The translations under genes were made by a program, and so were the position numbers. A stretch of DNA of 64,000 nucleotides from Malacoraja senta (taxonomy: Eukaryota). Within the stretch, counting starts at the first letter, position 1; every line of letters starts with the position of its first letter. The notes beneath the pieces are model-generated. The model saw only the letters and a program-made list of their open reading frames with translations. It had not been told where the DNA came from and did no database searches. Of the stretch, positions 9,060-43,900 are shown one piece after another. Where the stretch lies: NCBI GenBank assembly GCA_038087875.1, contig CM075992.1, positions 10,914,001-10,978,000 on the forward strand, written 5' to 3'.

Positions 9060-9480
9060 CTAAGCTGGTACTGGGGGCAGGACATATGACAGAGGTAATG
9101 GTACTAAATAGGACCTTGGAGTTATGGGAAATAAGGTCGGAAAAGTATTGTGTTCTCGCAGACGTTACTGCTTCCTGGTATTTGAGAAGATTGTTTCTCA
9201 GAATTTCAAAGGAAATTTGAAGCTTATCAGATTTATACTTCCGTTCTGATTTTCTGCACTCTCTTCTTAGGGCTCTGGTGCTGTCATTGAGCCAGGGCCA
9301 GCCTTTTGCTTAGGCTTTTTCATTTTAAGAGGAACAACAGAATCCAGGATGGAAGAGCAAGTGGTATTGAATAAAGAAATGAGGTCGTCAGTGCTGAGAT
9401 GGAGGGGAGACGCCTCGATGGTGCAGATGTCGGGAGCAGCTATGAAAGCCTCAGAGAAGTTACTGGCAGTCGAAGAGTTT
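9060..9480 (-). mobile_element. L2-like LINE internal fragment (EN-RT linker)
   Basis: Minus frame reads KAKSQPWLNDSTRALRRECRKSERKYK...ARTQYFSDLI, typical of the L2/CR1-group ORF2 linker. Confidence 0.5.
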
Positions 9481-9727
9481 GATTACATATTCTACCTTGC
9501 AGCAAAACTTGAATAACATTTCAGCAGCACCAAGGTTTTAGGTTTTCCAGCTATAAATAAACCCTATTGGAAAACTTGAACTTAAGTCAAGTAGCAGGAA
9601 ACTAAAACAACTAAATCTATACTTATTTTGCATACCCTTAATTTTCCTTTGAATTTAAGCAGTGTGTGCAATGGGCATCAATGATCCCATCAGTTCCCAT
9701 AAGATTACTTAGTTCAATATTACCACC

Positions 9728-10455
9728 AGGGGCGCTGTACGATTGGCAGCCCTGCCAACAGCCTGTTTTTTTCTTTTTTTATTATTTAAGTGTGTTTAAA
9801 AAGTTTGTATAAAAAATGTTCTCCTGTTTGTTTTATATGTGGGAAGGGGGAGGGTCTCTTACCCTGCCGGAGATGCGAGTTTTCCGGATCTCATCTCCGG
9901 TTGTTCTGCGGCCTAACATCGTGGAGTTGGAGGCCTGCTCGGACTGACTTTGAGCCACACCGCGGGGCATGGCCTTATCATCAGAGCTGTTCCCTTGCCT
10001 GGGACTTTACATCGAGAGCTCGCGGTCTCGGGAGAGGCTGAGACAGGAGCTCCAACGATGCAGAGATTCGACGCCCCAACCTGGAGTCCGATTGCCCGCA
10101 TGGAGGAGCACACATCCCCCCGATGGGGGAGCTGATCGCCCCAACGCGGAGGGCCCAAACGCCACCGGCTACGGGAGTCAAGATCATCCTGTCAACGGAA
10201 GGCTCGAGGCCCCCGACCGCAAGGGAACAAAGAAGAGAAGAGATTGAACTTTTTTTTTCACCTTCCATCACAGTGAGGAATGTGGAGGAGTCACTGTGGT
10301 GGATGTTTATATTAAAATGTATTTTGTGTGTTTTGTTGCTTTTTATTTGTATGACTGATAAGTTGGCTTATCAGTCATACAAATAAAGTTGGCTAATAAA
10401 GTATTATTGTAATTTATTATTTGTAATAAAGTATTATTGTATTGTATTGTATTAC
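9728..10455 (+). repeat. Non-coding interspersed repeat (non-autonomous retroelement-like)
   Basis: Starts ggcgct..ggcagccctgccaacagc; ends ggctaataaag plus (attgt)n. Similar architecture at 15377-16620 and 41147-46845; duplicated at ~19858-20585. Confidence 0.5.
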
Positions 10456-10822
10456 CCATGGTGTGTTTTCACTCCTGTGACTCATGATCCTCACTCCCAC
10501 TTCCCTCGTGATTCTGTAATTCCTGAATTTGATATAAACATGTCTGGATAAAGTTAAACAAGACTCTAATAGTAGCGCATGTCATTGTTTATTGTACTTA
10601 CGAATATACCAACTGCTATTCCTTTGAACACTCAATTCTCGTTTAACTTTAATGTTATTACTCACATTTACAGCTCTTTAACTGCAGATAATCTCAAAGA
10701 AGTCATTCCAATAATCACCTGGAGTTGTATGTACAGGTGATCATTACTTTCCACTCTCTTGCACTTTGCGAATGTACATTCATCCTTTTCAATACAAGAA
10801 TCAAACCCATTACCCCTCCCCA

Positions 10823-10831
<9 letters not shown>

Positions 10832-10863
<32 letters not shown>

Positions 10864-13800
10864 TTATTTATTAGAAGTACATTACATCACAGCCACATAC
10901 ATTAATACTCGTCATTTATATCTTCTTACAATTAATGTACTCCCTTTATTTTTTTTTTACGCTAAAGAAAGAAAAGATTGAAAGAGAGAAGAAAGTGAAG
11001 GAAAAAGTGCAAGTGTAGAAAAGTGTAGAAAATGTAACAACAAACAAAAAAAAAAAAAAGGACGAGGACCCTATGAAAGCGAAATTAAAGACAAAAAAAA
11101 AAAAGGAGTTAAGAAATAGGCCCTAAGAAAAGAAAAGAGAGAGAGAAAAAAAGAAAAACAAATGTTTTTTTTTTTTTGAGCATCACGTAAATAGGACATA
11201 CCAACTCTTCAACTATCATCCCCCCTTACCCGACCTCAATTTTTTATTTTTTTAAAGTACTTTTGCACCCTATGTTTGTAATAATTCTATAAATGCAGAC
11301 CACGTCAGGTGGAAGTGATCTGGTTTACCTGCTAGGAGGAGTCTTATCTCTTCAAGGTGTAGTGTTTCAAACATATTTGAAATCCACATATTTATAGTTG
11401 GTATTGGAGCCTTCTTCCAAAATTTTAGAATTAGCTTTTTTCCAGTTATTAACCCATAATCCATTAATTTCTTTTGAAACACATTTAGTTCTGGATCATC
11501 TTCCGTTATTCCGAAGATAATCCATTCTGCTTTGGGTATCAGTCTTGTTTTAAATAACTTTGTAAAGATTTCAAAAATTTCATTCCAAAATTTTTGAATT
11601 TTTGTACAGAAGACAAATGAGTGCGCTATAGTTGCTTCTTGGGATTGACATTTATCACAAATAGATGATACGTTTGGGAAAATTTTATGAATTTTAGTTT
11701 TCGAATAATATAATCTATGTAAAATTTTAAATTGTATTAAAGTGTGTCTTACATTAATCGAGCATTTATGTACTTTTAATAAGTATTCATTCCAACTTTC
11801 CTTTGAAATTTTAATGGCTAACTCTTGTTCCCAGTCTCTTCTGATACCCTCCGTAGATGGTATTTGTACATTTAAGATAATATTGTACAAATATGATATT
11901 AAGTTTGCTGATTCCGCTTTTGTCTGCATTGCCTCGTCCAGTACATCTGCTGGGTTATTATGATGATCTTTTATATATTTTTTCAAATAGTCGCATATTT
12001 GAAAGTATTTAAAATATTGATTATTTCCGAGTTTATATTTTATTTGTAATTGTTGAAATGAAAGTAATTTTCCAGTTTCATACAAGTCACCAAGCGTTTT
12101 AATTCCTAGTCTATCCCATTGTGTATAAGCTTTATCTATAATAGAAGGACTAAACGAAGGGTTATTGACTATAGGTAATAAAAGTGATAAGTTTCTTAAT
12201 TTTAAATTTTGTTTTATTTGTTTCCAAATACGGATTGTACTATGAATAATTGGGTTCTTATTATAGTTTATGTTATTCAATTTCATTGGAGAGAGGAGGA
12301 TCGCTCCAATGTTTCTAGAGGAGCAATCCTCTTTCTCCATTACAATCCAGTCTACTTGCTGGGCGGAGTTATCCATCAGTTGAATCATGTTTTTAATATT
12401 TACTGACCAATAATAATACATAAAATTGGGTAGTGCTAGACCCCCCAATACTTTAGATTTATTCAGATGGGTTTTTTGTATTCTATGTGATTTATAGTCC
12501 CATATAAAATTAGTGATATCTGAGTCGAGTTTTTTAAAAAACTTCTTAGGTAAGTATATAGGGATTGATTGAAATAGGTATAAAATTTGTGGTAAAAAGA
12601 TCATTTTTATTGCGTTTATTCGGCCTATTAAAGACATCGGAAGCGTTTTCCAGAATTTAATTAATGTATTCAGTTTATTAAGTAGGGGGTCAAAATTTGC
12701 CCTGAGCATACCTTGATATGCTCTGGTAATTTCGATTCCCAAATATTTAAATTTTTCTGTAGCTATTTTAAAAGGGAATTTTAAAAGATGTGTTGAATCT
12801 TTCGGTTTTATTGACATAATTTCACTTTTATTCCAATTTATTCTATATCCAGAAAAAGATCCGAAGTCTTCAATTAAATTTAATATATTTGGTATAGTGA
12901 TTTGAGGTTTTGTGATATACAATAATATATCATCCGCGTATAAAGATATTTTATTATATGAGTCTTTAGTATTATATCCATGAATATCAGGGTGTATTCT
13001 AATTTTTTCTGCTAGCGGTTCAATAATGAGAGCAAACAGCTGTGGTGATAATGAGCATCCTTGTCTATTTCCCCTTGATAGTTGAAATTTCGAGGATAAT
13101 ATGTTATTAGTAAGTATTCTAGCTGTAGGTTTGTTATATAGTAACTTAATCCATAAAATAAAATTCTCTCCCAGTTGAAATTTTTGTAATACTTTATCCA
13201 TATAATTCCATTCTACTTGATCAAATGCTTTTTCAGCATCCAGCGAAATAATTGATAATTCTTGATCTTCAGATTTGTGTGAGTGCATTATGTTGAGTAG
13301 ACGTCTCATATTATTAGAAGAGTATCTCTTAGGGATAAACCCTGTCTGATCTGGGTTTATTAATTTACTAATGTATTTACTTAATCTTCTGGCTAATGTT
13401 TTCGCTAATATTTTTTGATCTGTGTTTAACAATGCTATAGCTCTATATGAGCCAGGATCTTCTAAATCCTTATTTTTCTTAGGTATTAATGTAATCGTTG
13501 ATTCCGCTAATGTATCAGGTAGTATTCGTTTTTTAAAAGCGTATTGGTACATTTTTTGTAGTCTTGGTATTATTTTTTCATAAAAGTTTTTATAAAATTC
13601 ATTAGTAAATCCATCAGGGCCTGGTGTTTTTCCATTTTTTAGTGAGTTTATTGTATCTTCTAATTCCTTAATTGAGATTTGTGCACCCAGTTCCTCTTGT
13701 TCCTTCAGCTCTAACTTTGGAAGATTACAGGTATCCAAGAACTTTGTGATATTATTGGAATCAATTATCGTTTTAGATGTATACAAATTCTCGTAAAATT

Positions 13801-15126
13801 GCGCAAATCTTTTATTAATATCCTTCGGTGTTGTTAATAATTCCCCTTTATCTGATTTGATCTTTGGTATAGTATGTTCCTTTTCTCGTTTTTTTAGCTG
13901 GCGAGCCAAAAGTTTATGCGGTTTATCCCCAAATTCAAAGTGCTCTTGTTTTGTAATTTGAAAAAGTCTTATAAGTTTGGCAGATAATAATTTATTTAAT
14001 TTAAATTTTAAAATTATTATTTTATTATGTTTATCTATTGTTGGATCTTTAGCATTATCTATATCCATTTGTCTAATAAGTTCTTCTAACTGTCTTTGTT
14101 CATTCTTATTCTTTTTATTTTGAAAAGCTTGATATGAAATTATAATACCCCTAATGTATGCTTTAAAAGATTCCCAAAGTAAAGTAGGCGATATATCTGA
14201 AGTATCATTTGTTTGAAAAAAGACCTCCATTTGTTCTTTTAAATATATACTCGCTTGTGGATCTTTTAAAATTTGAGAGTTAAATCTCCAGAATGAATTA
14301 TTCTTAGACAATCCTTCCAGTTTTAAAAAGAAAGTTAGTGGAGAATGGTCTGAAATTGAATTTGTATGATATATTGCATTAGATGTTTGGGGGATTAATT
14401 TTGTATCCAGCAGAAAGTAGTCTATACGTGAGTATGTCTTATGTACCATTGAGTAAAACGAATATTCCCTGCCAGTTGGGTTCACAATTCTCCAAACATC
14501 TGCTATATTAGTGTTGTTTATGTAGGTATTGAGGAGTTCCCCAGTTTTCGATTTCATATTCCCTCTCTGTTTTTGACTTGATTTATCTAAGTACGGGTCT
14601 AAAACACAATTAAAGTCTCCGCCTATTATAACATTTTGATAGTTTGACTCTGCAATTATATTAAAGATTTTATTGAAAAAGTGGGGGTTATCAAAGTTAG
14701 GGGCATATATATTTACCAAAGTAAGTGGAGTGTCATGGATTTCTCCATTAACTATTAGGTATCTCCCTTCTATATCTGTTATAATATTCTTTGCTTTAAA
14801 TGGTATACCTTTTCTTATGATAATTGACGTGCCTCTAGATTTTGAAGTGAATGAAGAGTGGTATGTTTGACCTATCCATTTCGCCCTCAGCCTAACTTGG
14901 TCCTGAGGTTTTAGGTGTGTTTCTTGTAGGAAGGTAATGTCAGAATTATACATTTTTAGCTGAGCTAATATCTTACCCCTTTTGATAGGTTCATTAATGC
15001 CTCTTATATTCCAACTACAAAATGAGACTCCTCCTAGGTTCTTTTGTGTGGTGTCATGCATTTTGAATAATTATAGTACCTTTGAATCTTGTGGTGCGTC
15101 CATATCCCAGGTCTTTAGGTATTGGT
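10832..15126 (-). mobile_element. L1-clade LINE, 5'-truncated (ORF2 + 3' UTR + poly(A)), young insertion
   Basis: Poly(T) on + at 10827-10858; TSD CTCCCCATTACTTTTT at 10816-10831 and 15127-15142; empty site near 20946-20961. Confidence 0.95.
11270..15061 (-). CDS. L1 ORF2p (APE endonuclease, reverse transcriptase, C-terminal CCHC), uninterrupted 1263 aa
   Basis: EN motifs SWNIRG, FLQETH, NIYAPN, GDFN, RIDYF, SDH; RT motifs SLDAEKAFD, RQGCSLSP, LYADD, FKYLG; CDKC...H...C knuckle. Confidence 0.95.
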   Translation of the reverse strand: MHDTTQKNLGGVSFCSWNIRGINEPIKRGKILAQLKMYNSDITFLQETHLKPQDQVRLRAKWIGQTYHSSFTSKSRGTSIIIRKGIPFKAKNIITDIEGRYLIVNGEIHDTPLTLVNIYAPNFDNPHFFNKIFNIIAESNYQNVIIGGDFNCVLDPYLDKSSQKQRGNMKSKTGELLNTYINNTNIADVWRIVNPTGREYSFYSMVHKTYSRIDYFLLDTKLIPQTSNAIYHTNSISDHSPLTFFLKLEGLSKNNSFWRFNSQILKDPQASIYLKEQMEVFFQTNDTSDISPTLLWESFKAYIRGIIISYQAFQNKKNKNEQRQLEELIRQMDIDNAKDPTIDKHNKIIILKFKLNKLLSAKLIRLFQITKQEHFEFGDKPHKLLARQLKKREKEHTIPKIKSDKGELLTTPKDINKRFAQFYENLYTSKTIIDSNNITKFLDTCNLPKLELKEQEELGAQISIKELEDTINSLKNGKTPGPDGFTNEFYKNFYEKIIPRLQKMYQYAFKKRILPDTLAESTITLIPKKNKDLEDPGSYRAIALLNTDQKILAKTLARRLSKYISKLINPDQTGFIPKRYSSNNMRRLLNIMHSHKSEDQELSIISLDAEKAFDQVEWNYMDKVLQKFQLGENFILWIKLLYNKPTARILTNNILSSKFQLSRGNRQGCSLSPQLFALIIEPLAEKIRIHPDIHGYNTKDSYNKISLYADDILLYITKPQITIPNILNLIEDFGSFSGYRINWNKSEIMSIKPKDSTHLLKFPFKIATEKFKYLGIEITRAYQGMLRANFDPLLNKLNTLIKFWKTLPMSLIGRINAIKMIFLPQILYLFQSIPIYLPKKFFKKLDSDITNFIWDYKSHRIQKTHLNKSKVLGGLALPNFMYYYWSVNIKNMIQLMDNSAQQVDWIVMEKEDCSSRNIGAILLSPMKLNNINYNKNPIIHSTIRIWKQIKQNLKLRNLSLLLPIVNNPSFSPSIIDKAYTQWDRLGIKTLGDLYETGKLLSFQQLQIKYKLGNNQYFKYFQICDYLKKYIKDHHNNPADVLDEAMQTKAESANLISYLYNIILNVQIPSTEGIRRDWEQELAIKISKESWNEYLLKVHKCSINVRHTLIQFKILHRLYYSKTKIHKIFPNVSSICDKCQSQEATIAHSFVFCTKIQKFWNEIFEIFTKLFKTRLIPKAEWIIFGITEDDPELNVFQKKLMDYGLITGKKLILKFWKKAPIPTINMWISNMFETLHLEEIRLLLAGKPDHFHLTWSAFIELLQT

Positions 15127-15174
15127 CTCCCCATTACTTTTTGATGTTGTTGTTTACAGTAAACATTTGAAATG

Positions 15175-15295
15175 GTTCCTCCGCTCAGTCCGCCTATGTC
15201 TACGTGATCTCCTGGTTGCTAAACACTTTAACTTGCCCTATTCCCATACTGACCTTTCTGTTCTGGGCCTCCTCCACTGTCAGAGTGATACTCAA
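15175..15295 (+). mobile_element. Penelope 3' fragment (also duplicated at ~20994-21114)
   Basis: VAKHFNLPYSHTDLSVLGLLHCQS, matching the GIY-YIG C-terminal region at 17518-17775. Confidence 0.65.
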
Positions 15296-15956
15296 CAGAA
15301 TTCTCACTGACTTAGCCCATCTCGTGCGGCCTCACTAAAGTCCGATAGAACAGCATCATGACATCCTGATTCTTATCCGAGTGGTGGCACCATCGAGTGT
15401 GGCTGTCTCGCCTGCAGCTGTCTGTCCTTTCATTCATTTTGTTATTTTTTAGTCTGTTTTAAAGTTTGTTTTTGGAGGTCTATTAGTCTTTTTTTACGTG
15501 GGGGGAGGGGGAAACTGTTTTCCTTAGTCACTTCCTGGCCGAGGATGCGACTATTCTCCGAGCCGCTTCTTCGCCCCCTCCTCGCAGCCTACCATCTGGA
15601 TTGGCACGGCCTTTCCTGCTGGAGACCGGCCAGAGCTTCAGCTTCAGCAGCGGCGCAGCACTGGATTCCATCGCGGAGCAAGCGATGCCTTACCGGGAAT
15701 CGCCGTGTTGGAGCTCCGGAGTGCTGGGACTGCCGACTTTGAACACCATGGAGCTGTGGTCTGTGGAGCTTCCAGCCGCTGGCGGCGCTGACTTTCCAGC
15801 CGCTGGTACCACTGACTTTGACATCGCGGTGCCTGGGATCTCTTGTCGAGGTCGCCAGCGTTGAATCTCCGACCAGCTCGGCCTGTGGACTTCGGAAGCT
15901 GCGGTTTCTGGTAGGAAGCGGCTGATTCGGAGGCTCCGTGCTGCTGAGAGTGTTGG

Positions 15957-17150: not shown

Positions 17151-17960
17151 GGGGAGTGGGCAGTACAGAGATAAAATGTAGTCAGAGACAGGAAGACTAC
17201 CAGAACTGGTAAGGGATGGAGAGAGAGAGAAAGCAACGGCTACTTAAAGTTAGAGAAGTCATTGTTCATGCCTCTGGGGTGTAAGCTACCCAAGCAAAAT
17301 ATGAGGTGCTGTTCCTCCAAATTGCACTGGGCCTCACTCTGACAATGAAGGAGACGCAGGACAGAAAGGCCAGTGTGGGAGTGGGAAGGGGAATTAAACA
17401 CCTGTCCCTATACCTCCCCCCACGACTCCGTCGCAGGATCCCAAGAGTCTTTTCAGGTGAGGCAGAGGTTCACTTGCACCTCCTCCAACCTCATTTACTG
17501 TATGTGCTGTTCCAGGTGTGGACTCCTGTATATCGGCGAGACCAAGTGCAGGCTCGACGATCGTTTTGCTGAACACTTTCTGCCTAAATCTACCTGATTT
17601 CCCAGTTGCTCATAACTTTAATTCCCCCTCCAATTCCCACACTGAGGTTTCTGTCCTGGGCCTCCTCCATTGTCTGAGTCGGGCACGGCCCAAATTGGAG
17701 GAACAGCACCTCATATTTTGCATGGGTAGCTTACACCCCAGTGGCATGAACATTGACTACTCTAACTTCAAGTAGCCCTTGCTTTCCTTCTGTCTCCATT
17801 CCCACCCCAGTTCGCCTACCAGTCTTACTGTCTCCGACTACATTCTATCTCTGTACCGCCCACTCCCCTGACATCAGTCTGAAGAAGGGTCTCGGCCCGA
17901 AACGCCACATATTCCTGTGCCGCCGAGTTACTCCATCATTTGGTGTCTGTCTTCGATTTA
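17150..17960. mobile_element. Penelope 3' ends in inverted arrangement (minus ~17150-17400, plus ~17400-17960) with GIY-YIG fragment
   Basis: FTCTSSNLIYCMCCSRCGLLYIGETKCRLDDRFAEH; 17240-17390 is the reverse complement of 17620-17790; hammerhead-like core at 17879-17906. Confidence 0.8.
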
Positions 17961-18100
17961 AACCAGAATACAGAAGACATTCATCAGATGTTGTCTGCAA
18001 CAGAAAAGCCTGGTTTAAGGAGAGATTGGATGGTGAGTTTCCATTCACTGGAGGTGCTGCCAAACATAATGGAGGGTTATATCATTATGATGGGCCCCAC

Positions 18101-18136
18101 CAAAGATACTAGAGGAGCTCCGCTATATAATCTTTG
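18101..18136. mobile_element. 36-bp fused-TIR relic of the CAAAGAT (P-like) family; probable excision footprint
   Basis: caaagatactagaggagctccgctatataatctttg flanked by a perfect 8-bp direct repeat ggccccac (18093-18100, 18137-18144). Confidence 0.7.
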
Positions 18137-19091
18137 GGCCCCACCACCGCCCCGCGCTCCCTGCCCCGCCCCGCGCTCATTGGTCGGCCCCGTCCCGCCC
18201 CGCCCCGCGCTCATTGGTCGGCCCCGCCCCACGCGCTCCCTGCCCCGCCCCGCGCTCCCTGCCTGCCCCGCCCACGCGCTCCCACTGCCCCGCTCCCTGC
18301 TCCGCCCCGCCTGCTCCGCCCCGCGCGCTCCGACCCCGCCCCCCCCCCCCCCCCCCCCGCGAGCTCCAACAAGTTCCGCGCGCTGCTACCCCCGACCTGC
18401 GCGCGCGCTCTGACCAACCGCCTCCCTGGACCAAAGATGCCGTGCACCGCTCCCCCATCAATGGCCGCCCTGCTCCGCCCCGCGGGCTCCCATCCTCCTT
18501 TTCCTGCGCGTTCCGACCAACTGTCGCTCCACTCTGCCAGTCCACTGCTCGCCATCTGCCGCCGTTTGGTGACGGTCGCTTTGCAAATCGTTTCGAGGGT
18601 ATGTGAACTTTATAACACGCGGCAAGGTGTGTGCCCGCTGCTGCTGCAAAACTTTCCATTCACCTCCTGCCAGAACGTCAAAATAATTTAAGATTCCCTA
18701 TCTCTCAACTATTTTCCCCTTCCTGTGTAGGATCTTTCATTCATCGTTGTCTCCTTAGAGCGTGAACTTCATTACAATTTCCAACTCTAAACCTTCCATT
18801 CACTGTTTCTCTGAATGTCAAACCTCATATTCACCTATGTAAGTATTCAAATAATGCATTCATCATTTCCTAATTGTAAAATGCTTTATTCATGTTAGCA
18901 CACAAACATAGAAAATAAGTGCAGGAGGAGGCCATTCGGCCCTTCGATTCATTGTGATCATGGCTGATCGTCCCCAATCAATAACCCGTGCCTGCCTTCT
19001 TCCCATATCTCTTGATGCCACTAGCCTCTAGAACAAAAGATTCTCACTGTATCTTGGTACACGTGACAATAATAAACTAAACATTTACCAT

Positions 19092-19473
19092 CAAAGATCT
19101 TATAGCAAGCAAGATAGATCACTCAACGAAAAAGACAGCCATGGGCAGATTCAAGGGTAATTTTTGGCCCCATTTGATTTCCACAACTGGCTTCCGTCTC
19201 CGCACCAAAGATCCCATAGGATACTAGTGCAGAGACGGAAGCCGGTTACGGAAACATCCTCGTAAAAATAAAAGTTATTTGGGAAAAATCTCCTTTTCAG
19301 TATTATAATTTATTAACACAAACTGTCCCCCCGCATAGCTGATTACACTGCGGGTCGGGTCGGGTTACTGAAATGGATGGAAAAAAAGGCCCACGTTCCG
19401 CTCCGTTGCGTACTACACGTCAGCCCATTGCATTTAGAAGGAGTGGTCTATCTTGCTTGCTACAGGATCTTTG
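19092..19473. mobile_element. MITE with 33-bp TIRs and 8-bp TSD (P-element-like; hAT not excluded)
   Basis: TIRs caaagatcttatagcaagcaagatagatcactc / gagtggtctatcttgcttgctacaggatctttg; TSD tttaccat (19084-19091, 19474-19481). Confidence 0.85.
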
Positions 19474-19479
19474 TTTACC

Positions 19480-21585
19480 ATGGAAGAGCAAGTGGTATTG
19501 AATAAAGAAATTAGGTCGTCAGTGCTGAGATGGAGGGGAGACGCCTCGATGGTGCAGATGTCGGGAGCAGCTATGAAAGCCTCAGAGAAGTTACTGGCAG
19601 TCGAAGAGTTTGATTACATATTCTACCTTGCAGCAAAACTTGAATAACATTTCAGCAGCACCAAGATTTTAGGTTTTCCAGCTATAAATAAACCCTATTG
19701 AAAAACTTGAACTTAAGTCAAGTAGCAGGAAACTAAAACAACTAAATCTATACTTATTTTGCATACCCTTAATTTTCCTTTGAATTTAAGCAGTGTGTGC
19801 AATGGGCATCAATGATCCCATCAGTTCCCATAAGATTACTTAGTTCAATATTACCACCAGGGGCGCTGTACGATTGGCAGCCCTGCCAACAGCCTGTTTT
19901 TTCTTTTTTTGTTATTTAAGTGTGTTTAAAAAGTTTGTATAAAAAATGTTCTCCTGTTTGTTTTATATGTGGGAAGGGGGAGGGTCTCTTACCCTGCCGG
20001 AGATGCGAGTTTTCCGGATCTCATCTCCGGTTGTTCTGCTGCCTAACATCGTGGAGTTGGAGGCCTGCTCGGACTGACTTTGAGCCACACCGCGGGGCAT
20101 GGCCTTATCATCAGAGCTGTTCCCTTGCCTGGGACTTTACATCGAGAGCTCGCGGTCTCGGGAGAGGCTGAGACAGGAGCTCCAACGATGCAGAGATTCG
20201 ACGCCCCAACCTGGAGTCCGATTGCCCGCATGGAGGAGCACACATCCCCCCGATGGGGGAGCTGATCGCCCCAACGCGGAGGGCCCAAACGCCGCCGGCT
20301 ACGGGAGTCAAGATCATCCTGTCAACGGAAGGCTCGAGGCCCCCGACCGCAAGGGAACAAAGAAGAGAAGAGATTGAACTTTTTTTTTCACCTTCCATCA
20401 CAGTGAGGAATGTGGAGGAGTCACTGTGATGGATGTTTATATTAAAATGTATTTTGTGTGTTTTGTTGCTTTTTATTTGTATGACTGATAAGTTGGCTTA
20501 TCAGTCATACAAATAAAGTTGGCTAATAAAGTATTATTGTAATTTATTATTTGTAATAAAGTATTATTGTATTGTATTGTATTACCCATGGTGTGTTTTC
20601 AGTCCTGTGACTCATGATCCTCACTGCCACTTCCCTCGTGATTCTGTAATTCCTGAATTTGATATAAACATGTCTGGATAAAGTTAAACAAGACTCTAAT
20701 AGTAGCGCATGTCATCGTTTATTGTACTTACGAATATACCAACTGCTATTCCTTTGAACACTCAATTCTCGTTTAACTTTAATGTTATTACTCACATTTA
20801 CAGCTCTTTAACTGCAGATAATCTCAAAGAAGTCATTCCAATAATCACCTGGAGTTGTATGTACAGGTGATCATTACTTTCCACTCTCTTGCACTTTGCG
20901 AATGTACATTCATCCTTTTCAATACAAGAATCAAACCCATTACCCCTCCCCATTACTTTTTGATGTTGTTGTTTACAGTAAACATTCGAAATGGTTCCTC
21001 CGCTCAGTCCGCCTATGTCTACGTGATCTCCTGGTTGCTAAACACTTTAACTTGCCCTATTCCCATACTGACCTTTCTGTTCTGGGCCTCCTCCACTGTC
21101 AGAGTGATACTCAACAGAATTCTCACTGACTTAGCCCATCTCGTGCGGCCTCACTAAAGTCCGATAGAACAGCATCATGACATCCTGATTCTTATCCGAG
21201 TGGTGGCACCATCGAGTGTGGCTGTCTCGCCTGCAGCTGTCTGTCCTTTCATTCATTTTGTTATTTTTTAGTCTGTTTTAAAGTTTGTTTTTGGAGGTCT
21301 ATTAGTCTTTTTTTACGTGGGGGGAGGGGGAAACTGTTTTCCTTAGTCACTTCCTGGCCGAGGATGCGACTATTCTCCGAGCCGCTTCTTCGCCCCCTCC
21401 TCGCAGCCTACCATCTGGATTGGCACGGCCTTTCCTGCTGGAGACCGGCCAGAGCTTCAGCTTCAGCAGCGGCACAGCACTGGATTCCATCGCGGAGCAA
21501 GCGATGCCTTACCGGGAATCGCCGTGTTGGAGCTCCGGAGTGCTGGGACTGCCGACTTTGAACACCATGGAGCTGTGGTCTGTGG
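19480..21585 (+). repeat. Near-identical duplicate of 9349-15766 lacking the L1 insertion
   Basis: Direct alignment with scattered single-base differences; the ORF-track peptides repeat almost exactly. Confidence 0.95.
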
Positions 21586-21587
21586 TC

Positions 21588-22368
21588 TCTCTCAACTATT
21601 TTCCCCTTCCTGTGTAGGATCTTTCATTCATCGTTGTCTCCTTAGAGCGTGAACTTCATTACAATTTCCAACTCTAAACCTTCCATTCACTGTTTCTCTG
21701 AATGTCAAACCTCATATTCACCTATGTAAGTATTCAAATAATGCATTCATCATTTCCTAATTGTAAAATGCTTTATTCATGTTAGCACACAAACATAGAA
21801 AATAAGTGCAGGAGGAGGCCATTCGGCCCTTCGATTCATTGTGATCATGGCTGATCGTCCCCAATCAATAACCCGTGCCTGCCTTCTTCCCATATCTCTT
21901 GATGCCACTAGCCTCTAGAACAAAAGATTCTCACTGTATCTTGGTACACGTGACAATAATAAACTAAACATTTACCATCAAAGATCTTATAGCAAGCAAG
22001 ATAGATCACTCAACGAAAAAGACAGCCATGGGCAGATTCAAGGGTAATTTTTGGCCCCATTTGATTTCCACAACTGGCTTCCGTCTCCGCACCAAAGATC
22101 CCATAGGATACTAGTGCAGAGACGGAAGCCGGTTACGGAAACATCCTCGTAAAAATAAAAGTTATTTGGGAAAAATCTCCTTTTCAGTATTATAATTTAT
22201 TAACACAAACTGTCCCCCCGCATAGCTGATTACACTGCGGGTCGGGTCGGGTTACTGAAATGGATGGAAAAAAAGGCCCACGTTCCGCTCCGTTGCGTAC
22301 TACACGTCAGCCCATTGCATTTAGAAGGAGTGGTCTATCTTGCTTGCTACAGGATCTTTGTTTACCAT
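21588..22368 (+). repeat. Duplicate of 18701-19481, including a second MITE copy (21979-22360)
   Basis: Constant offset of 2887; same TSD tttaccat, so duplicated rather than independently inserted. Confidence 0.95.
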
Positions 22369-22820: not shown

Positions 22821-23220
22821 CAGGGTAGGCTGTTGGATGCTGTGGAGGATCGGTCGGGCTGACGGAAGGCCGGTGAGTGCTGCGAGGGGTTGGTTAGGCT
22901 GTCGGAAGGCCGGTGAGTGCTGCGAAGGGTCGGTCCGGCTGTCGGCCCGCCAGTGGATGCTGCGAGGAGTCGGTCGGGCAGTTGGTAGGCCGGTGAGTAC
23001 TGCGAGGGGCTGGTCGGGCAGTTGGTAGGCCGGTGAATGCTGCGAGGGGTCGGTCGGGCTGTCGGTAGGCCTGTGAGTGCTGCAAAGGCGTAGGTCGGGC
23101 AGTTGGTAGGCCGGTGGATGCTGCGAGAGGTCGGTCGGGCATTCGGTAGGCCGGTGAGTGCAGCGAGGGGTCGGTCGGGCTGTCGGCCGGCCGGTGTTGC
23201 AGCAAGCGAGCGGGCCGACT
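22821..23220. repeat. GC-rich minisatellite, ~40-bp unit, about 10 copies
   Basis: Variants of tgcgaggggtcggtcgggctgtcggtaggccggtgagtgc start at 22881, 22921, 22961, 23001, 23041, 23081. Confidence 0.9.
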
Positions 23221-24024
23221 GACGGAGTCGGCGCTATGGGGGTGCTGAAGGCGGCCCAGGCGGCATGCAAGGCAGTGTTGCTCCCCACCATCATCATGAC
23301 GATCCAGAACAGCATGCTGGCCGAGGTGGACTCTACACGTATGGAACCCGCAGCCAGTCCCAAAGCGGCTCCAGCTCCAGCCGTGGGCAGCTCTGGAAGG
23401 GGGGGGGGCGTGTTAGGGTTAGTATAGGGTTAAGCATTTTCCTCTCAGTGGAAGGTGCCTTCGCCTTCCCCCAGCCTGGCACTGCCGCAGTCCCACTATG
23501 GCCGTGACCCCCACTCTGCACACTGGCAGTCAGTGGAGTTCAGTAAAGGGGGAAACCCAGAAGAACTGCCCTCACCCATTAATTAGGCTGGTTCAGGAGG
23601 CGGACCTCTGCAGCAGTCTCATTCAATAAACACACACAATTATATTAATTATATTATTTTTATATAATATAATTATACATAATTATATATGATTACAGTC
23701 ATATTCACAAGTCATATATATGGTATAATATATAGTTTAAATAGACTGCAACATGGAAATCGGCTCTCTATGGTGTAATATGGACATTGGACACTAGATG
23801 GCGCTTACTTTTTTGATCTCATTGTCTAATTAGTTTCATTAATTAATGTGCAACTTTTGGCACTAAGGGGTTATGACTTCCTCTCAATTATATTTTATCT
23901 AAATCTGTGCAAAATTTCATGTAGTTCCAAGACATGGGTCACGAATGTTGATTTCTAGACACATCTTTGATGCTCGGCTCACAGCCTAGCAGGCCATCAG
24001 TTCAATTCTGCCACCCTTACAATA

Positions 24025-26712: not shown

Positions 26713-28801
26713 TTGGGACTCTTCTTCAGACTGCTTGCTCCATTTTTTGTACCTGCCTAAAGTCTATAATCAAGAGTTTGCAAGAAGTGCAGTCACTTTT
26801 TAATAGACATGATTTCTTAATAGACATGCATTGAACAAAGCCTTGAGTTCGTTGTTTTGGTGAATAGAGAATAAAACAAGGGAAGCTAATGATAGCTGCT
26901 GAAAGCATAATGTTACTGAAAGTCTGGAAGACTGGTGTTGCAATAAAAAGGCATAGATTACCACCAAAGTTTGGAAGACCATGGAGTTGCAATTAAAAAG
27001 GCATAGATTGTAGGAGCAGGGAGAAGACATGCCAGGGTTATAGAAAACGTGGTCAGCCACAGATATTTTTTATTCCAAATCACAGAAAAGATTTGGTATC
27101 ACTAGAGCAGGCCTTGTGCTTTCCCATATTCAGCATTTGACTGCTTTTCTTGCTGTTTGATAATTTTTACTGGGCAAAATATTTTAGCTGCATCCAACCA
27201 GAGCATTATCTATTCGAAAGCCTGCAATATCCTGTTGTGGCAGTACTGTTCAACTTCCTTTTTGTCTTATTGATTGTTGCTCCATATTGACTGATCTAGA
27301 TTATGTTCCAGAAGCAAGCAATCACGCAAAGTATTGTATGAAATAAGAATATACAATAGCTACAGTATACCAGGAACTAATCAGACATGTATAAAAATGT
27401 AGGATCAAGATAACTAAGAAATAAGATTCTTGAGATGACACCGTCACTGATAATCAGTCTTGAAAACAAAGCAGAACACAAAATTGGAAATACACTGGCT
27501 TTATGAAATTAATAAAATTAATAATTTATTTTACAGTATGTGGCTCACTGCTTGAAAGCACAAACTTTACTCAATATTGCTCTATGGCAACAATACTTGT
27601 CAACGAAGCATTGACTTGCACCATCAAAATAGAAGAACGTCCCAGGGTGTTTCATTGTATTTTAAATAACATTTGATCTTTGTTCAAAGCTGTGACCTTA
27701 AAGCTGAAAGATAGGTCGAGGTGGCAAAATTTATGGGAGGGATTCCAGATCTTAGGGTCTTGGTAGATGAAGTTACAATGGATCAATTAAACTTAAATTA
27801 GTAGGTCAGAATTAATGTGGTGCAGGGATTTCAGAGGATTGTAGAGATGGGAAGATTACAGTCATGAAAAGCCAATAGAATAGCCTAAAAACAGATGAGA
27901 ATGACGGGTAATAGGTTCATGTGAATTGGCTTAAATTAGAATGAATGCAGAATCTTGGATGACTAAGTTAATAGAGGTGAGGTCAAAGGATGCCTACAAG
28001 TATCATGTTAGAGATAGGTACAGCTTGGAAACATGCCCTTCGGCTCAACTTCCCCACACCGGCTAACATGTCCCGGCTACACTCGTCCCACCTGCCCGTG
28101 TTTGGCTCGTATCCCTCTAGACATATACCTGTCTAACTGTTTCTTTAATGTTGGGATGGTCCCTGCCTCAGCTACCTCCTCTGACAGCTTGTTCCATACC
28201 CCGATCACTCATTGTGTGAAAAAGGTACCCCTCAGATTCCTATTAAATCTGGGCATTTTGAGCTCCAAGTCCATATCTCCTTGAAAGTGGCAACATTATT
28301 GAATAGAATGGTTAAGATGGTGTTTGGTATGCTGGCCTGCATTGGTCAGGGCATTGAAATTAAGTGTCAGGAAGTTGCAGCTTTATAGGACTGGCTGGGC
28401 TACATTTTAAGTATTGTGTGTGTGTGTGGGGGGGGGGGGGGGGATCTGCGAATGGGCATCTTAGCCAGGCCCAGGAGCAAACCGTTTCCAGCAGACATAC
28501 GTTCCCCCAACGCAACCCTTTTCCCCCACTCACTCACTGTGCAGTTAATTTTTTAAAAAATGCAATTGCACTAAGATTTAATGTGATGTAGGTGCCACCG
28601 ACAAGTCCGTCTTTTGTTATCCAAATCTAATCATTAAACTTTGCTGTGCTGGGTTAGGTTGGCAGATTCTTATTCTGAAGGACATTTGCTGTGAAGGACT
28701 CAGTGTTCTGGGATAGAAACATTGTAGCCGGTAGGGCATTGTGACGTCATAACTGCCTAACTGCCAGTTCAGATTTGAAGAAATCCAACTTTTAAATGTC
28801 A

Positions 28802-29180
28802 CTAGACCACGGGGGACCCGTTGGGTCCCGTCCCCTCAACGTGCGCGGGAGGGGGGGGGAGGGTGAGGGGAAGAAAAGGGATGGCGGGGGAGGAAGAGAG
28901 GCTGGGAGAGAGAGAATGGGAGAGAGTGGAAGGGGAAGAAAAGGGGAGAGGGGGAAGAGGTGGGGGAAGAGAGGTGGGTGGAAGAGAGGAGTTGGGGGTG
29001 GGGTGGTGAAAGGCCGGGGGGGGAGAGCCCGAGGGGGGGGGAGAGAGAGCCCGGGGGGGGGGGGTAGATAGAGAGAGACCGGGGCGGGGGAGAATGAGAG
29101 AGACCAGGGGGGAGGGGTGAAAGAGAGCCTGGGGAGGGGGAGAGAGAGCCGGGTGGAGAGAGAGAGAGCTGGGCAGGGAG

Positions 29181-29216
<36 letters not shown>

Positions 29217-30474
29217 GGGCGGGAGGAGGGGGAGCCCGGGGGGGAGAGAGAGAGGGGGAATGCTCTCAGAGCATCGTTTTCTCAAGCAGTATGATTATAC
29301 ACACACCCACCCGCACACACACCCGCATCCAAGATCAGACTTTAAATAGTTACTAGACCAACGAGCGGTTGCGGGGGGGCGCCTTTGGCATCACACACAC
29401 ACTAACCACCCCCACACACACACACACTAACCCCCCCTTTGATATATTATTATTCATTCGCTCCTTTTTCCCCATTCCCCGCCCTATCCACTCATAACCC
29501 CCAACTGCGCCGGTGCGGCTAGAGAGAAGGTGGGTAGAGAGGGAGAGGGTGAGGGTGGTAGAGAGGGAGGGGGAGGGGGTAGAGAGGGAGAGGGAGGGGG
29601 TCGAGATTGAGGGGTGAGGCGCGCAGCGTCACAGGGGAGGGTGGTTCCTGAACGCAATACTCCACCAGAGAGGGGTGGGCAGAGCGGGAGGGGGGAGAGT
29701 TGGAGGGGGGCAGAGAGGGAGTGGGGGCAGAGAGGGAGGGGAGTTAGAAAGGGAAGGGGGCAGAAAGGGAGGGGGTAGAGAGGGAGGCGGTGGAGGCAGC
29801 ACCTACCCAGGTCGTAGAGCAGCAGCCTCCCCACCAGGCGCCGGGCCCGAGCGGGGGGAGAGAGAGGGCGGGGAGAGAGAGAGCTGTAAAACAGGGCCCG
29901 ACTTGCTCGTTCTTCACTCGCAGCACCTGCTGCAGTCTGAAAAGCGAGCGGGCCACGAAAAGCGAGTGGGGAGTTGAGCAAGGGAGCGGTCAGCGGGCAG
30001 CAGTGCGCTGGTCAACCAAATTACTGCCTGTCTCACTAATGTCTTACACCAACCACACACACACACACACCCCACACCCCCCCCAAGATCAGAGTTTTAG
30101 TATATACTAGACCAAGGGGGACCCATTTGGTCCCATCCCGTCAACGCGCGGGGGGGGGAGCAAGAGGGGGGGGGGAGGAAGAGAAAGGCTGGGGAGAGTG
30201 ATGAGGGGGGGAGGGAGGGGAGTGGAAGATGTGGGGTTGGAAGAGATGGGAGGTGGAAGAGAGGCCCTGGGGAAGTAGTGAAAGAGAGGCCGGGGGGAGA
30301 GAGAGTCTGGGGGGGGGAGGGAGAGGGCTGGGGGAGAGGCAGGGGGGCAGGGGGAAGAGAGCCGGGGGGCCGGGGAAGAAAGCCCGGGGGTGGGGGTGAA
30401 GAGTGCCGGGGGTGGAGGGAAGAGAGCCCGGGTGGTGGGAGACGAGGAGAGAGAGAGAGAGAGAGAGGGAGGGA

Positions 30475-30518
<44 letters not shown>

Positions 30519-31074
30519 ATTCTTCACTCGCAGCGGGTGCCGCAGTCTGAAAAGCAGCGGGGAGTTGAGGAAGGGAGCGGGCAGCGGTGCGAGCGTCAAC
30601 CAAATTACTGCGGGTTCAATCCAGAGCCTGGGGGGGAGGGCGGGGCGGCGGCCGGCCGAGTGCGAGTCGACTGTGAGCGGGTGGCGACCAAATAATTGCG
30701 GGTCGGCGGGGGTGAGGTGACTCGCAGCGCGTGGAAAGTAGTGCACAGCAGCCGGCGCGTGGAAAACAGTGCGCAGCGGGCGACTGTGAGATGGCATTGT
30801 GACATAATGACTGGAAGCTGCTAGAAAATTCTCACTCTCACAGGCAGTTAGTGTTTTAAAAGTTGTTTTTTAAAAAACTTTAATCATCACTAACTTGTGA
30901 AATATAGCATCAGATCTGATGGGAACCTGATTATGGCGTGGACGGGAAAAATGTGAGTAAGAATGTGGAAAATTTTCAGCGCTACCGCGTAGCGTTTTGA
31001 CGAAGATACAAAAACAGACATACACAGACACACACACACATACAAGTTTAGAATTTTAGAAGTATATAGATAGA
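28802..31074 (-). mobile_element. Array of three non-autonomous Helitrons (3' CTAG at 28802, 29353, 30107)
   Basis: a|ctagacca ends; hairpin gggacccgttgggtccc ~10 nt from the CTAG (28813-28829, imperfect at 30118-30134); caagatcagagtttta-type 5' motifs; terminal tatataga|taga|t. Confidence 0.75.
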
Positions 31075-36826: not shown

Positions 36827-37208
36827 AATAGCAGTGAGGAAGAAGCATTCTCACGTCTACACCAGTGATAAACCGTACAACTGTAAAGTAAGAAGCTGCG
36901 ACAAGTCATACACTCACCCTAGTTCTCTTCGCAAACACATGAAAGTTCACTGCAAATCTCCTCCCCCTCCCGCTAGCTCAGGCTATAAGCTTTCAAACAC
37001 ATCCTTGGGGATAGTGTCCCCAGCCGCAGAGACAGTCAGGGGCCGCACTGCCAGCGTGTCCTCGCAAGTAACTAACCTCAACGGATGGTACGTCTCTCAG
37101 GGAAGCAGGGCGGCCAACAGCCTGCACGCACCTTCCAACAATGGCACCTCGTCCGACACCGAGGATGAGGAAGCTTACACGAACTCTGATCCCAGAACTA
37201 TGCTCTGA
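36827..37208 (+). pseudogene. zic5: Zic5 last-exon fragment (end of ZF4, ZF5, C-terminal tail), decayed
   Basis: RKKHSHVYTSDKPYNCKVRSCDKSYTHPSSLRKHMKVHCKSPPP...SQVTNLNGWYVSQ...HAPSNNGTSSDTEDEE matches the vertebrate ZIC5 C-terminus. The Asp codon of NSSDR is reduced to one G (36836), His becomes Tyr at 36858-36860, and the start of ZF4 is missing. Confidence 0.85.
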
Positions 37209-39630: not shown

Positions 39631-41749
39631 TTTAATAATCGTATTCCATATTAAATGTCTAAATCCTAACAAAATGTCGAAACGTGATTTTTTTGCGGGG
39701 TCTGCGGATGTAGCAACACTCAACTCGATCTTCGATAGTGAAGAATCGAGTAATCTCAGCCAATGGTGGAAAGCCAGATGATTTCAGGCCCCGGGAGTGA
39801 GTTTTATGTTTATATGTTTATTGTTGCACAAGGACCTCTGCCTCTGTGCAAATATTTACCTGTTCAATGGCAGAATGGGAGACATGTAAGAGGCAGGTTG
39901 AAGAAGCTACCTGGATACAATTGGCAGCCAGATGTAAAACAGTTCACAATATTATCTGTAATCGTTATTTGAAAACGACGTAAAAAAGGCAAGCAAAAAA
40001 GTCACATTTGTTTTCGGAAATCAAAATGTTCTGGGGTCCAAAATTGCAGGGAAACTGGGAGATATATTGGTTGAGGCGAAATCAAGATTTAACGAAGATT
40101 CCCGTTTTACAAATCCGGTCGCAGTACACGAATATACCGAACTGTTTTAATATCTCCACAGTTCAGTTGTAACCTCGCCCCACAAATGTTATACTTGATT
40201 ATTTACATTTTATTGCACGGTCGCCCCCAGCAGCGCATAAAACCAAAATGCAGCATCAAAAACAATGCGGCAAAATACATAGTTTCCGCAGTTCAATTTC
40301 TGATTGTCACAGTTCTAGATATGATGAAGTTTTTCATAATTCATCATCTGTCTCAGAGGAACTGAATTTGTCTCTAGGATCATAATGGATATTTAAATTA
40401 TTATCGTCGACTTTATGTACGTTATGGGTGGTATATCCCATGTACCGCTGATCGCGCTTCAGGGTCACCTTGTGAAGGTGGATATCATACCACCTAAAAG
40501 TGCTGGAGTTACACAAAGACACAGCAGAAATTTGGAAATGTCATCCCATCACACATTCCTTCTCTCCAGAGATGCTGCCTGCCCGCTGAGTTAAAGAGTT
40601 CCCACGGTAGACTCACGAGTCACTAAGGTAAACGCACGGGCCACTACGTTCTTACAACGTATTTAAACGTTTCAAATTTTAACCTCAAGAGTACATTTTA
40701 CTCGTGGAAAAGTTTAAACATGTTTGAATTTTTCCAAGAGTTAACAAGTGTCACGGGTACCTGCCGTTAGCGCCAAGAGTCGCTAAGTTGCGTCCACGAG
40801 TTCCGACTTTCAAGTGTTCAAGTTCAAGTGAGTTTATTGTCATCTGTCCCTGATAGGACAATTAAATTCTTGCTTTGCTTCAGCACAACAGAACATAGTA
40901 GACATAGGTTTAATCCTTCACCCTTTAGATTATAATGATGCAGAACACCAGCAGAATCAAATTGCAAATGATTTGCTGACAACAAATGCATCTAAATCAT
41001 ACCACTGGCACTAAAAAGAAGCATAATGAGACAAAAAAGGACTGAAATTAATTTAGGGCGCAATTACCAAATCTTGACTTAAGAGGAGGCTATTAAGAGT
41101 CAGGAAGACATGTTTCAGCTTTATGGGACTTTGGTGAGGCTGCATTTGGCGACGTACAGTGGCTGCCTTGACAACAGTCTGCCTCGTCCCTTTCTCTCTT
41201 TATTGTTTTTTAGTCTGTAGCTAAATGTTGTTTTAGTGTATGTTTAGTTTTGCGTTAGGTGGTGGGGGGGACTTTTTTATCTCTTTCCTCGACGGAGATG
41301 TGACTTTTCCTTTTCATATCTACATCTGCACTGCGGCCTAACATTGTGTAGCTGGCGGCCTCTTGCTGGGGATCGATCTTGGGTCCGCCAGCCGCGGATA
41401 ACATCGTGGACAGGGCCGGATTTACGTACAAGCTAGACAAGCTTAAGCTTAGGGCCTTGAGATCTAGGGGGGCCTCTGCTCGCTCCACCAAGGTGTATAC
41501 AACTTTTGAGATAGTGGCGTTGTTACAAAACCTACCATCATTGGCGCTGTGCGATAGTGGCGTTGTTACAAAACCTACCATCAGTGGCGCTGTGCTTGCG
41601 ATTCCGGAGGCTTTGGTGGTGTAGGGGGGGAGGGGGGGGGTAGGATATATTAGTTGTGGAGAGGAATTTGCTCCACAGATCCTTGGATCATTCGAAGTGC
41701 AGGACAAAGCAAAAGGTATGTAGTTTATTTAACCTTTTTCCCCCGCCAA

Positions 41750-41950
41750 ACTTCGCCGCCGCATTGGGGCCTACCCACCTCGCCGGTGCACTGGGGCCTA
41801 CCCACCTTGCATCCGCACTGGGGGCCTATCCACTTCGCCGCCGCACTGGGGCCTACCCACCTCGCATCCGCACTGGGGGCCTATCCACCTCGCATCCGCA
41901 CGGGCCTACCCACCTCGCCGGCGCACTGGGGGCCTACCCACCTCGCCGCC
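41750..41950. repeat. ~30-bp minisatellite inside the hAT element
   Basis: Repeated cgcactggggcctacccacctcgcc variants. Confidence 0.85.
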
Positions 41951-43900
41951 GTCCTAGTGCTAGTCAACCTAACCCTGGTAACCTCAGTGGCTGTTCCACT
42001 GGGTCTTCCCCATCCCCCTCAAACTATGTGACCTCTGCTCTTCCCCACCCACACTACAGTCTTCATGCCCCCCTCCTCCCTGACCACCCACCAACCAGAC
42101 ATTGCCTCGGCCTTAGTCCACTCACCTGCCTTCCTCTGGCCCCAACCCGCATCCCTGCCATGTGTTCACCATCCCCCCTGACCTCCTCTCCGACACCGAA
42201 CGGTCGGTCCTCAGCAGAGGTCTTACCTTTGTCCCCCTCCGTCCCCACCTCAATGAGTTCCGCGCCCACCACGACTTGCAGCTCTTCTACCGTCGCCTCC
42301 GCCTCACAGCGTTCTTCCATGGGAAGGAGTCCTCGCCCCCTATTGATGATCCCTTTTCCCATCTCCAACGAACCCCCTCCTCGTGGACCCCCCCTCATGG
42401 CCTTCCGGCATTAGACCTTTTTATCCAAAACTGCCGGCGGGGCATCAACCACCTCAACTTCTTCACTCCCCTGTCTCACTCCAATCTCTCCCCCCCTGAA
42501 CGTACAGCCATCAACTCACTCCGCAACAACCCAGACTGAGTTATCAAACCCGCCGACAAGGGAGGTGACGTGGTAGTCTGTCTCGTCGATCTCTACAAAG
42601 CTGAGGCCACGCACCAACTCTCGGACAACTCCTCCTACTTACCCCTGGACCATGACTCCACAGATGAGCACCAGGCCACTATCTCCAGCACCATCACTGA
42701 CTTCATCCACTCCGGCTCCCTGCCCCCCCCCCCCCGAGCCTCCAACCTCATCGTTCCCCAGCCCCGCACGGCCCGATTTTACCATCTCCCCAAAGTCCAC
42801 AAACCGGACTGTCCTGGTAGACCCATTGTCTCTGCCTATTTGTGCCCTACCGAACTTATTTCCACATACCTTGACTCCATCCTATCCCCACTGGTTAAAT
42901 CCCTACCTACCTATGTTCAAGACACCTCAGACACTCTCCGTCGTCTCCGCGCATTCCATTCTCTAGGCCCCCATCCCCTCATCTTCACCATGGACGTCCA
43001 GTCACTCTACACCTCCATCCCCCACCAGGATGGTCTTAAAGCCCTCCGGTTCTTCCTCGACCGGAGAATCAACCTATACCCGTCCACTGATATCTCCTCC
43101 GCCTAGCGGAGTTGGTCCTTACCCTCAATAACTTCTCGTTGACTCCTCCCATTTCCTCCAAATACAAGGTGTAGCTATGGGCACGCACATGGGCCCCAGC
43201 TATGCCTGCCTCTTTGTCGGGTACGTCGAACAATCCTTGTTCGAGGCGTATCAGGGCCTCTACCTCTGCTACATCGACGATTGCTTTGGTGCTACCTCCT
43301 GCACCCACACACAACTGACTGACTTCATCCGCTTCACCACTAACTTCCATCCAGCACTCAAATACACCTGGACCATTTCCGACACTTCCCTACCATTTCT
43401 TGACCTCACTATCTCCATTGCAGGTGATAGACTTCTGACCGACATCCACTATAAACCCACTGACTCCCATGGCTATCTAGACTTCTTCCCACCCTGCTTC
43501 CTGTAAGGACTCCATCCCTACTCCCAATTCCTCCGTCTACGCCGCATCTGCTCCCAGGATGAGGTGTTCCACACCAGGGCATCGGAAATGTCCTCATTCT
43601 TCAGGGAACGGGAGTTCCCCTCCCCTACCATAGATGAGACTCTCACCAGGGTCTCTTCCATACCCTGTAACACTGCTCTCTCTCCCCATCCTCCCACTCG
43701 TAACAAGGGCAGAGTCCCCCTAGTCCTCACCTTTCACCCCACCAGCCGTCACATACAACAAATAGTCCTCCGTCATTTTCGCCACCTCCAACGTGACCCC
43801 ACCACTCGCCACATCTTCCCATCTCCCCCCCTGTTTGCTTTCCGCAAAGACCGCTCCCTCCGCAACTCCCTGGTCAATTCTTCCCTTCCCTCCTGCACCA
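41951..43900 (+). pseudogene. Penelope-like reverse transcriptase, frameshifted, GIY-YIG domain absent
   Basis: VLSRGLTFVP, KPADKGG, FYHLPKVHKPDCPGRPIVS, TMDVQSLYTSIPH, AMGTHMGPSYACLF, YIDD, LPFLDL, VPLVLTFHP. Confidence 0.9.

Follow-up and report, generated by a model that had tools for sequence, protein, structure and literature searches.

The 64-kb window, i.e., the whole stretch of DNA that was analysed, carries the last coding exon of ZIC5 at 36840-37205. This exon matches Amblyraja radiata at 93%, Mobula at 89% and four others at 84-87% (best named matches), with at most 69% for non-cartilaginous vertebrates, among the best 120 of 303 matches. By these matches, the host of the window is a skate or ray. 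An intact minus-strand ORF of 1266 aa (11270-15070) with endonuclease and reverse transcriptase domains is a young LINE. It is missing from one part of a complex recent duplication, in which 19480-21585 is a copy of 9349-15766 (98.9-99.7%) without the LINE at ~10860-15120, and 21588-22368 is a copy of 18701-19481 (100%). In X7, the sequencing run closest to the window (see below), the duplicated stretch from 18701 has a depth of 62.3 vs. 27.3 for single-copy sequence, as the window's duplication predicts, which supports the local duplication as real.

Several other repeats are present. A degraded hAT-like transposase remnant at ~560-2349, with a weak Dimer_Tnp_hAT match at 1544-1702 (E 3.4e-4, 20.8 bits vs. 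a cut-off of 21.4), lies upstream of a terminus (2335-2349) that resembles the terminus of the CAGGGCCGG element at 41411 and differs from the ends of the relic described below. The CAGGGCCGG element has perfect 14-bp CAGGGCCGGATTTA ends, an 8-bp duplication, ATCGTGGA, and a broken retroelement-like insert, which we take to be Penelope-like. Three tandem GA-rich units at 28800-31070, each with ACTAGACCA near its start and related AAGATCAGA/AAGTTTAGA stretches at its end, are possibly Helitron-type non-autonomous elements. Furthermore, a 40-bp tandem array of 8.6 copies is found at 22824-23225.

Termini of the P superfamily follow the consensus CANRG. A scan of the 64-kb window for CANRG ends and 8-bp duplications gave seven rows, among which real inverted ends are present in a 36-bp relic, a 382-bp MITE and its copy, and the unrelated CAGGGCCGG element at 41411-44281 (Table 1). 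Both ends of the relic and of the MITE read CAAAG and are thus of the CANRG type, although hAT termini can read alike.

Table 1. Positions of the relic, the MITE and the second target site in the window
Feature	Position	Strand	Description	Basis
TSD, left copy	18093..18100	+	GGCCCCAC	sequence
Left arm	18101..18118	+	18 nt, GGAGC at end; 2 substitutions relative to the right arm and 2 letters shorter	fuzzy match of right arm (2 substitutions, 2 deletions)
Right arm	18117..18136	-	20 nt read inward, GGAGC at end; GC (18117-18118) common with left arm	
TSD, right copy	18137..18144	+	GGCCCCAC	sequence
Relic with 3-bp outer flanks	18090..18147	.	reconstructed 14-bp target, 9/14 vs. Drosophila P motif	
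MITE with duplications	19084..19481	+	382 bp (19092-19473); related CAAAGAT ends, 8-bp duplication TTTACCAT; end family as relic, different subfamily	
Copy of MITE with its duplication	21971..22368	+	identical (100%; MITE at 21979-22360), within local segmental duplication	
Target site of second relic	19418..19425	+	CGTCAGCC; single in window, duplicated around a 24-bp two-tip relic in one X6 contig	

Because it is part of the local segmental duplication, the second copy of the MITE does not count as an independent insertion. One breakpoint of this duplication is the end of the MITE's right duplication, and short homologies are present at the junctions. Internally, the MITE contains a long hairpin at 19178-19254 (-24.9 kcal/mol as DNA), the loop of which starts with TIR-like CAAAGATCCCATAG and contains GATACTAG, an 8-mer also present in the left arm of the relic. 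In contigs of the run X6, the consensus of the loose ends behind 19457 starts with CCGCTATAGGATC; hence, the common right end of the MITE family has GGAGC where the window copy has AAGC.

The initial annotation noted that the tips of the relic resemble the ends of the MITE at 19092. This applies to the CAAAGAT ends. However, the MITE was rejected as the direct parent, since its ends, CAAAGATCTTATAGCAAGC and CAAAGATCCTGTAGCAAGC, are unlike either arm. Judged by sequence, the parent of the relic is of another subfamily, because the relic's left arm differs from the MITE.

Anatomy and copy number of the relics

The relic consists of the 36-bp unit CAAAGATACTAGAGGAGCTCCGCTATATAATCTTTG (18101-18136) between perfect direct repeats of GGCCCCAC (18093-18100 and 18137-18144), as the initial annotation had described. 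Within the 64-kb window, no other unit of 20-80 bp combines perfect 8-bp direct repeats with an enclosed perfect inverted repeat of 7 bp or more. When the window was resampled 100 times with a first-order Markov model, any such structure appeared only once. The inverted termini agree perfectly for 7 bp (CAAAGAT), and over the first 20 letters there are 13 matches. The direct repeat can be shifted, as the 11 letters of 18092-18102 are found again at 18136-18146; the 8-bp parse was chosen because the CAAAGAT ends are common to the relic and the MITE. The window shows no enrichment of CAAAGAT by itself (18 occurrences vs. 14.4 expected); therefore, lone matches, e.g., at 18432, were not counted as element ends.

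The description of the unit as two fused tips meeting in GAGCTC holds, but the 17 + 19 split that came with it does not: arms of 18 nt and 20 nt with a common GC at 18117-18118, or of 18 + 18 nt, fit better. Symmetric parses are 18 + 18 (blunt), 19 + 19 (on CT) and 20 + 20 (on GCTC), whilst the homology-based parse is 18 + 20 on GC. The right arm follows the right end of the family over 20 nt with two mismatches, where the family end is that deduced from the loose-end consensus in X6. A junction of 17 + CT + 17 with an untemplated insert was rejected, since the same insert is not expected across many copies. The relic adjoins a stretch (18137-18600) that is rich in GC (75%) and CpG (o/e 1.08), contains 12 GC boxes, 2 CCAAT boxes and 13 GCTCC/GGAGC words, and is in part multi-copy in X6. 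This stretch is promoter-like or another repeat.

Contigs of four of the seven listed public runs (X1, X5, X6 and X7; not X2-X4) were aligned to 17900-19560 at a likeness of at least 80%. X1, X5 and X6 contain only 0.04-0.07 of the words of the window and were used solely for what the aligned contigs show. In X7, one piece covers 18369-18730 with one difference at a depth of 27.3. At 18116, within the unit, depth rises to 71,361 in this run, i.e., 2,614-fold over that single-copy flank. The corresponding values are 1,109 vs. 18.9 in X1, 15 vs. 2 in X5, and 2,678 vs. 25.9 in X6, where the baseline is uncertain with other pieces at 140-207. Deep cover (bin means) extends over 31.4 (X7), 36.0 (X1), 31.4 (X5) and 33.7 (X6) of the 36 positions and is absent from the flanks. 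As it ends at 18101-18136, we rejected the idea of a repeat that includes these flanks and has the unit as an inner motif. In an X7 contig of depth 25, the left part of the unit adjoins another flank (joint 17954 to 18099). Among the contigs listed, X7 included, no piece spans the relic with both flanks; X7 is without cover at 18012-18067 and 18292-18347, which was not counted as evidence. At the relic site in X1 and X6, contigs align over 17983-18091 and continue with five unaligned letters. An unchanged empty site should align past 18091, and in these runs neither an empty nor a full allele is visible.

Summed contig depth overcounts short repeats, by a factor of 1 to 14 according to a de Bruijn simulation, a rough model with random flanks. 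By this simulation, X7 contains ~200-2,600 copies, with the closest fits at ~500-1,200, numbers that may be inflated if many copies sit in one larger repeat. X1 would contain ~50-60 diverged copies in the same rough simulation with random flanks. The relic belongs to a family of probably several hundred similar scar-like units. Two further length classes were found among the indels listed for X7. A 31-bp class lacks five letters at 18117 (4,214 of 71,314 depth, 5.9%; 13 contigs), and a 41-bp class has GCTCC inserted after 18116 (3,951 of 71,361 depth, 5.5%; two contigs). The listed variants are thus 31, 36 and 41 bp long, plus the one of 24 bp described next, in a distribution censored by the 80% likeness.

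One X6 contig (depth 37.9) runs along the MITE to 19427, continues with 22 other letters, AAGATCTGCTATAAGGTCTTTG, and is then back at 19418. These letters, together with CA of 19426-19427, form a 24-bp unit inside a duplication of CGTCAGCC, which can be parsed as tips of 9 nt (left) and 16 nt (right) that overlap by 1 nt. Like the 36-bp relic, it is made wholly of TIR tips. This one contig shows the same build at another length, in another organism and at a site with a known empty state. The initial annotation had made its reading depend on the existence of further relics. They do exist: the unit is multi-copy in all four runs, and the second relic has a proven 8-bp duplication.

The excision model and its rivals

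It is reasonably probable, in our view, that the 36-bp unit is an end-joining scar, left at the donor site when a cut-and-paste transposon of the P superfamily was excised and the break repaired. Insertion of an element with CAAAGAT ends would first duplicate 8 bp, as shown for this end family. By analogy with the P element of Drosophila, the transposase would then cut one strand at the terminus and the other well inside, leaving long 3' single-stranded tails of the element on the flanks. These tails may anneal on a short overlap near the tips, and fill-in and ligation would yield TSD, left tip, right tip and TSD. The overlap of the tails would be GC at least, and GCTC or AGCT if the left end of the parent continues that way. 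Reuse of the same overlap would produce the common 36-bp class, use of the next GC outward on the right tail the 31-bp class, and slippage by one GCTCC the 41-bp class, whilst deeper trimming may give scars like the one of 24 bp.

The initial annotation proposed a P-type footprint, and much of this proposal stands: both the 36-bp and the 24-bp relic consist of two fused TIR tips between the two TSD copies with a short-overlap or blunt join, the family is multi-copy, and the target sites, as far as three can show, look P-like. The proposed 17-nt dimension does not stand. The retained tips of 18 + 20 nt (with GC overlap) or 18 + 18 nt, 36 bp in total, exceed the at most 17 nt per tip and 34 bp of a P footprint without an insert. 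Since 36 is more than 2 x 17, the tails would have been at least 18 nt and more likely ~20 nt long. Tails near 20 nt also agree better with the dominance of the 36-bp class, because 18-nt tails joined on the GC overlap would give 31 bp, a minor class. We consider a stagger of 18-20 nt probable, with the estimate of ~20 nt depending on the sequence of the parent. A bolder suggestion, made here tentatively and with more doubt than conviction, is that one skate lineage recently saw high activity of a P/THAP9-type transposon with a ~20-nt stagger, vs. 17 in the fly. Hundreds of fixed 36-bp scars would then be a direct genomic record of how a vertebrate P transposase cuts and of the route by which the germline repairs the break.

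Duplications of 8 bp flank the MITE as well as both relics. Of the three, only the X6 relic has a known empty site, and this length is not P-specific as it is also found for hAT. The 14-bp palindromic target motif described for Drosophila P elements is ATRGTCCGGACWAT (PMC2577343). Reconstructed 14-mers match this motif at 9 (relic), 8 (X6 relic) and 6 or 4 positions (MITE, depending on the right flank chosen), compared with a window background in which 0.6% of the positions reach 9, 3% reach 8 and 24% reach 6. Taken together, the three scores have a joint chance of 0.0005 (0.005 if the poorer MITE flank is used). This is favourable, but the sites are only three, and the MITE's own site (4-6 of 14) is no better than chance.

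No match to a THAP domain or P transposase was found in 56 of the 71 window ORFs of at least 120 aa, nor in 11 short window pieces. The same holds for the ORFs of 70-119 aa, of which 150 of 177 were compared after filtering for low complexity. A degenerate end pattern gave no loci in a viral collection and 55 loci in metagenome contigs, none of them related; one of the 55 had a BLAST match to the window (25 bp, E 7e-4), which was rejected as a chance match. Among the aligned contigs, no parent with the exact two ends of the relic was found, where ends matching over only 18-20 letters are probably below detection. Thus, it is from sequence features that we infer that the relic family belongs to the P superfamily.

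Arms longer than 17 nt would demand no new chemistry if the relic resulted from abortive gap repair after excision of a non-P element, of the hAT or another type with 8-bp duplications, during which the ends were briefly resynthesised from the sister chromatid and joined on GC or GAGCTC. The 8-bp duplications fit hAT as well, and CA..TG ends are compatible with hAT elements, of which the window contains examples. In addition, the MITE duplication TTTACCAT has T at position 2 and A at position 7, which is the Ac-type target preference of hAT elements. However, gap repair predicts scattered and mostly longer deletion derivatives, whereas the copies near one 36-bp junction probably number hundreds. 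Furthermore, the Buster hAT consensus nnnTAnnn is fitted by none of the three duplications (relic, X6 relic and MITE), and the hAT remnant in the window has another terminus (2335-2349, like that of the CAGGGCCGG element). The initial annotation argued that hAT excision leaves no TIR tips, and indeed hAT cuts are described to produce hairpins on the flanks and small indels derived from them (PMC5499845, PMC3499496). We consider this explanation unlikely.

The high copy number, the one apparently dominant junction and the discrete 31/36/41-bp classes, which resemble subfamilies of a replicating element, could also mean that a 36-bp unit of single origin was later amplified, whether as a tiny MITE served by a partner transposase or as a passenger in a larger repeat; that the unit is flanked by a perfect 8-bp duplication fits this view. 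Compared with flies, where the AT join accounts for 14 of the 68 junctions tabulated in PMC2895639, a single junction seems to prevail more strongly here, and this greater uniformity keeps an amplified mini-element in play. However, cutting with a 17-nt stagger at both ends leaves a 36-bp element with at most 2 bp of duplex, and the scar should therefore be immobile under P chemistry. For so short an element, bringing the two ends together in one complex is also physically difficult. The 24-bp relic, built alike, is joined at another point. As to a passenger, deep cover ends with the unit at this locus and another contig has a different flank. Such amplification thus seems improbable. A chance arrangement or an assembly artefact might be suspected from the GC-rich direct repeat, which adjoins a low-complexity GC-rich stretch, and from the lack of a listed contig spanning the relic with both flanks, but the rarity of such structures in the resamples, the match of the ends to an independent MITE and the presence of multiple copies in all four runs make this scarcely credible.

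Implications and known systems compared

The long staggered cut is described as a distinguishing feature of P transposition, as mapped for the Drosophila enzyme (PMC7776569). The relics hint that a vertebrate enzyme cut with long staggered ends like those of the fly, perhaps longer. If end-joining after P-type excision is indeed their origin, a natural scar family makes the stagger of vertebrate P transposases testable from sequence, as the upper limit of the arm length reads the stagger, and the scar junctions read out end-joining in the germline. Scars may also offer a count of past excisions and a route to assign orphan MITEs with 8-bp duplications to P rather than hAT. They point to a possibly young P transposase in skates, with depth ratios of unit to MITE of 0.14 in X7, 0.10 in X6, 0.006 in X1 and 0.001 in X5. 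A literature search, with most subscription papers, Repbase and Dfam outside its scope, revealed no account of natural families of such scars, nor any of P elements in cartilaginous fishes. The terms 'THAP9' and 'DNA transposon' are absent from the main text of the little skate genome paper, the supplements of which may list repeat classes.

The footprints of the hAT elements TcBuster and Tol2 are similar to the relic in their 8-bp duplications and end-joined donor sites, but, as described in PMC3499496, PMC3553969 and PMC5499845, they result from precise excisions or consist of small indels derived from flank hairpins, and TIR tips are not retained. The P-MITEs of Anopheles gambiae (PMC1562414) and BuT5 of the Drosophila repleta group (PMC3698922) resemble the 382-bp MITE, being short and non-coding with P-type ends and duplications of 8 bp (8-9 bp for BuT5). 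They differ in having a length of at least ~200 bp and a link to sequenced master elements, and the word 'footprint' does not occur in the main texts of these two papers.

P-like elements of vertebrates are known from zebrafish; they have 8-bp duplications, were mobile and are excised by zebrafish THAP9 (PMC10983969, PMC7776569). Like the skate family, these Pdre elements have short TIRs, 8-bp duplications and internally deleted copies, and their transposase, zfTHAP9, is capable of excision. However, in Pdre2 the TIR measures 13 bp and a THAP9 ORF is known (PMC10983969), whereas the skate family has no known transposase. The consulted parts of PMC10983969 and PMC7776569 give neither a cleavage position nor a class of TIR-tip scars for zebrafish THAP9.

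The nearest match in anatomy is formed by the P footprints of Drosophila melanogaster. After cutting by the fly transposase, each donor flank carries a 17-nt 3' tail (PMC7776569, PMC2895639). In both systems, the two TSDs are kept, TIR tips are joined head to head where they share a short overlap close to their ends, some scars are shorter and asymmetric, and the 8-bp target is GC-rich (PMC2895639, PMC7776569). Among the 68 fly junctions in Table 1 of PMC2895639, the commonest short-overlap joins are on AT (14 isolates) and TA (5), which by our own count from that table correspond to scars of 30 and 32 bp, and the longer products described there are one-off insertions. These fly scars are laboratory products. 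In contrast, the skate scars, likened to them by anatomy and not by sequence beyond the first two letters, are natural, probably number hundreds of copies, have unequal arms and are commonly 36 bp long. The relic is not filed as a proven member of the P superfamily; it works like a Drosophila P footprint without having the Drosophila dimensions.
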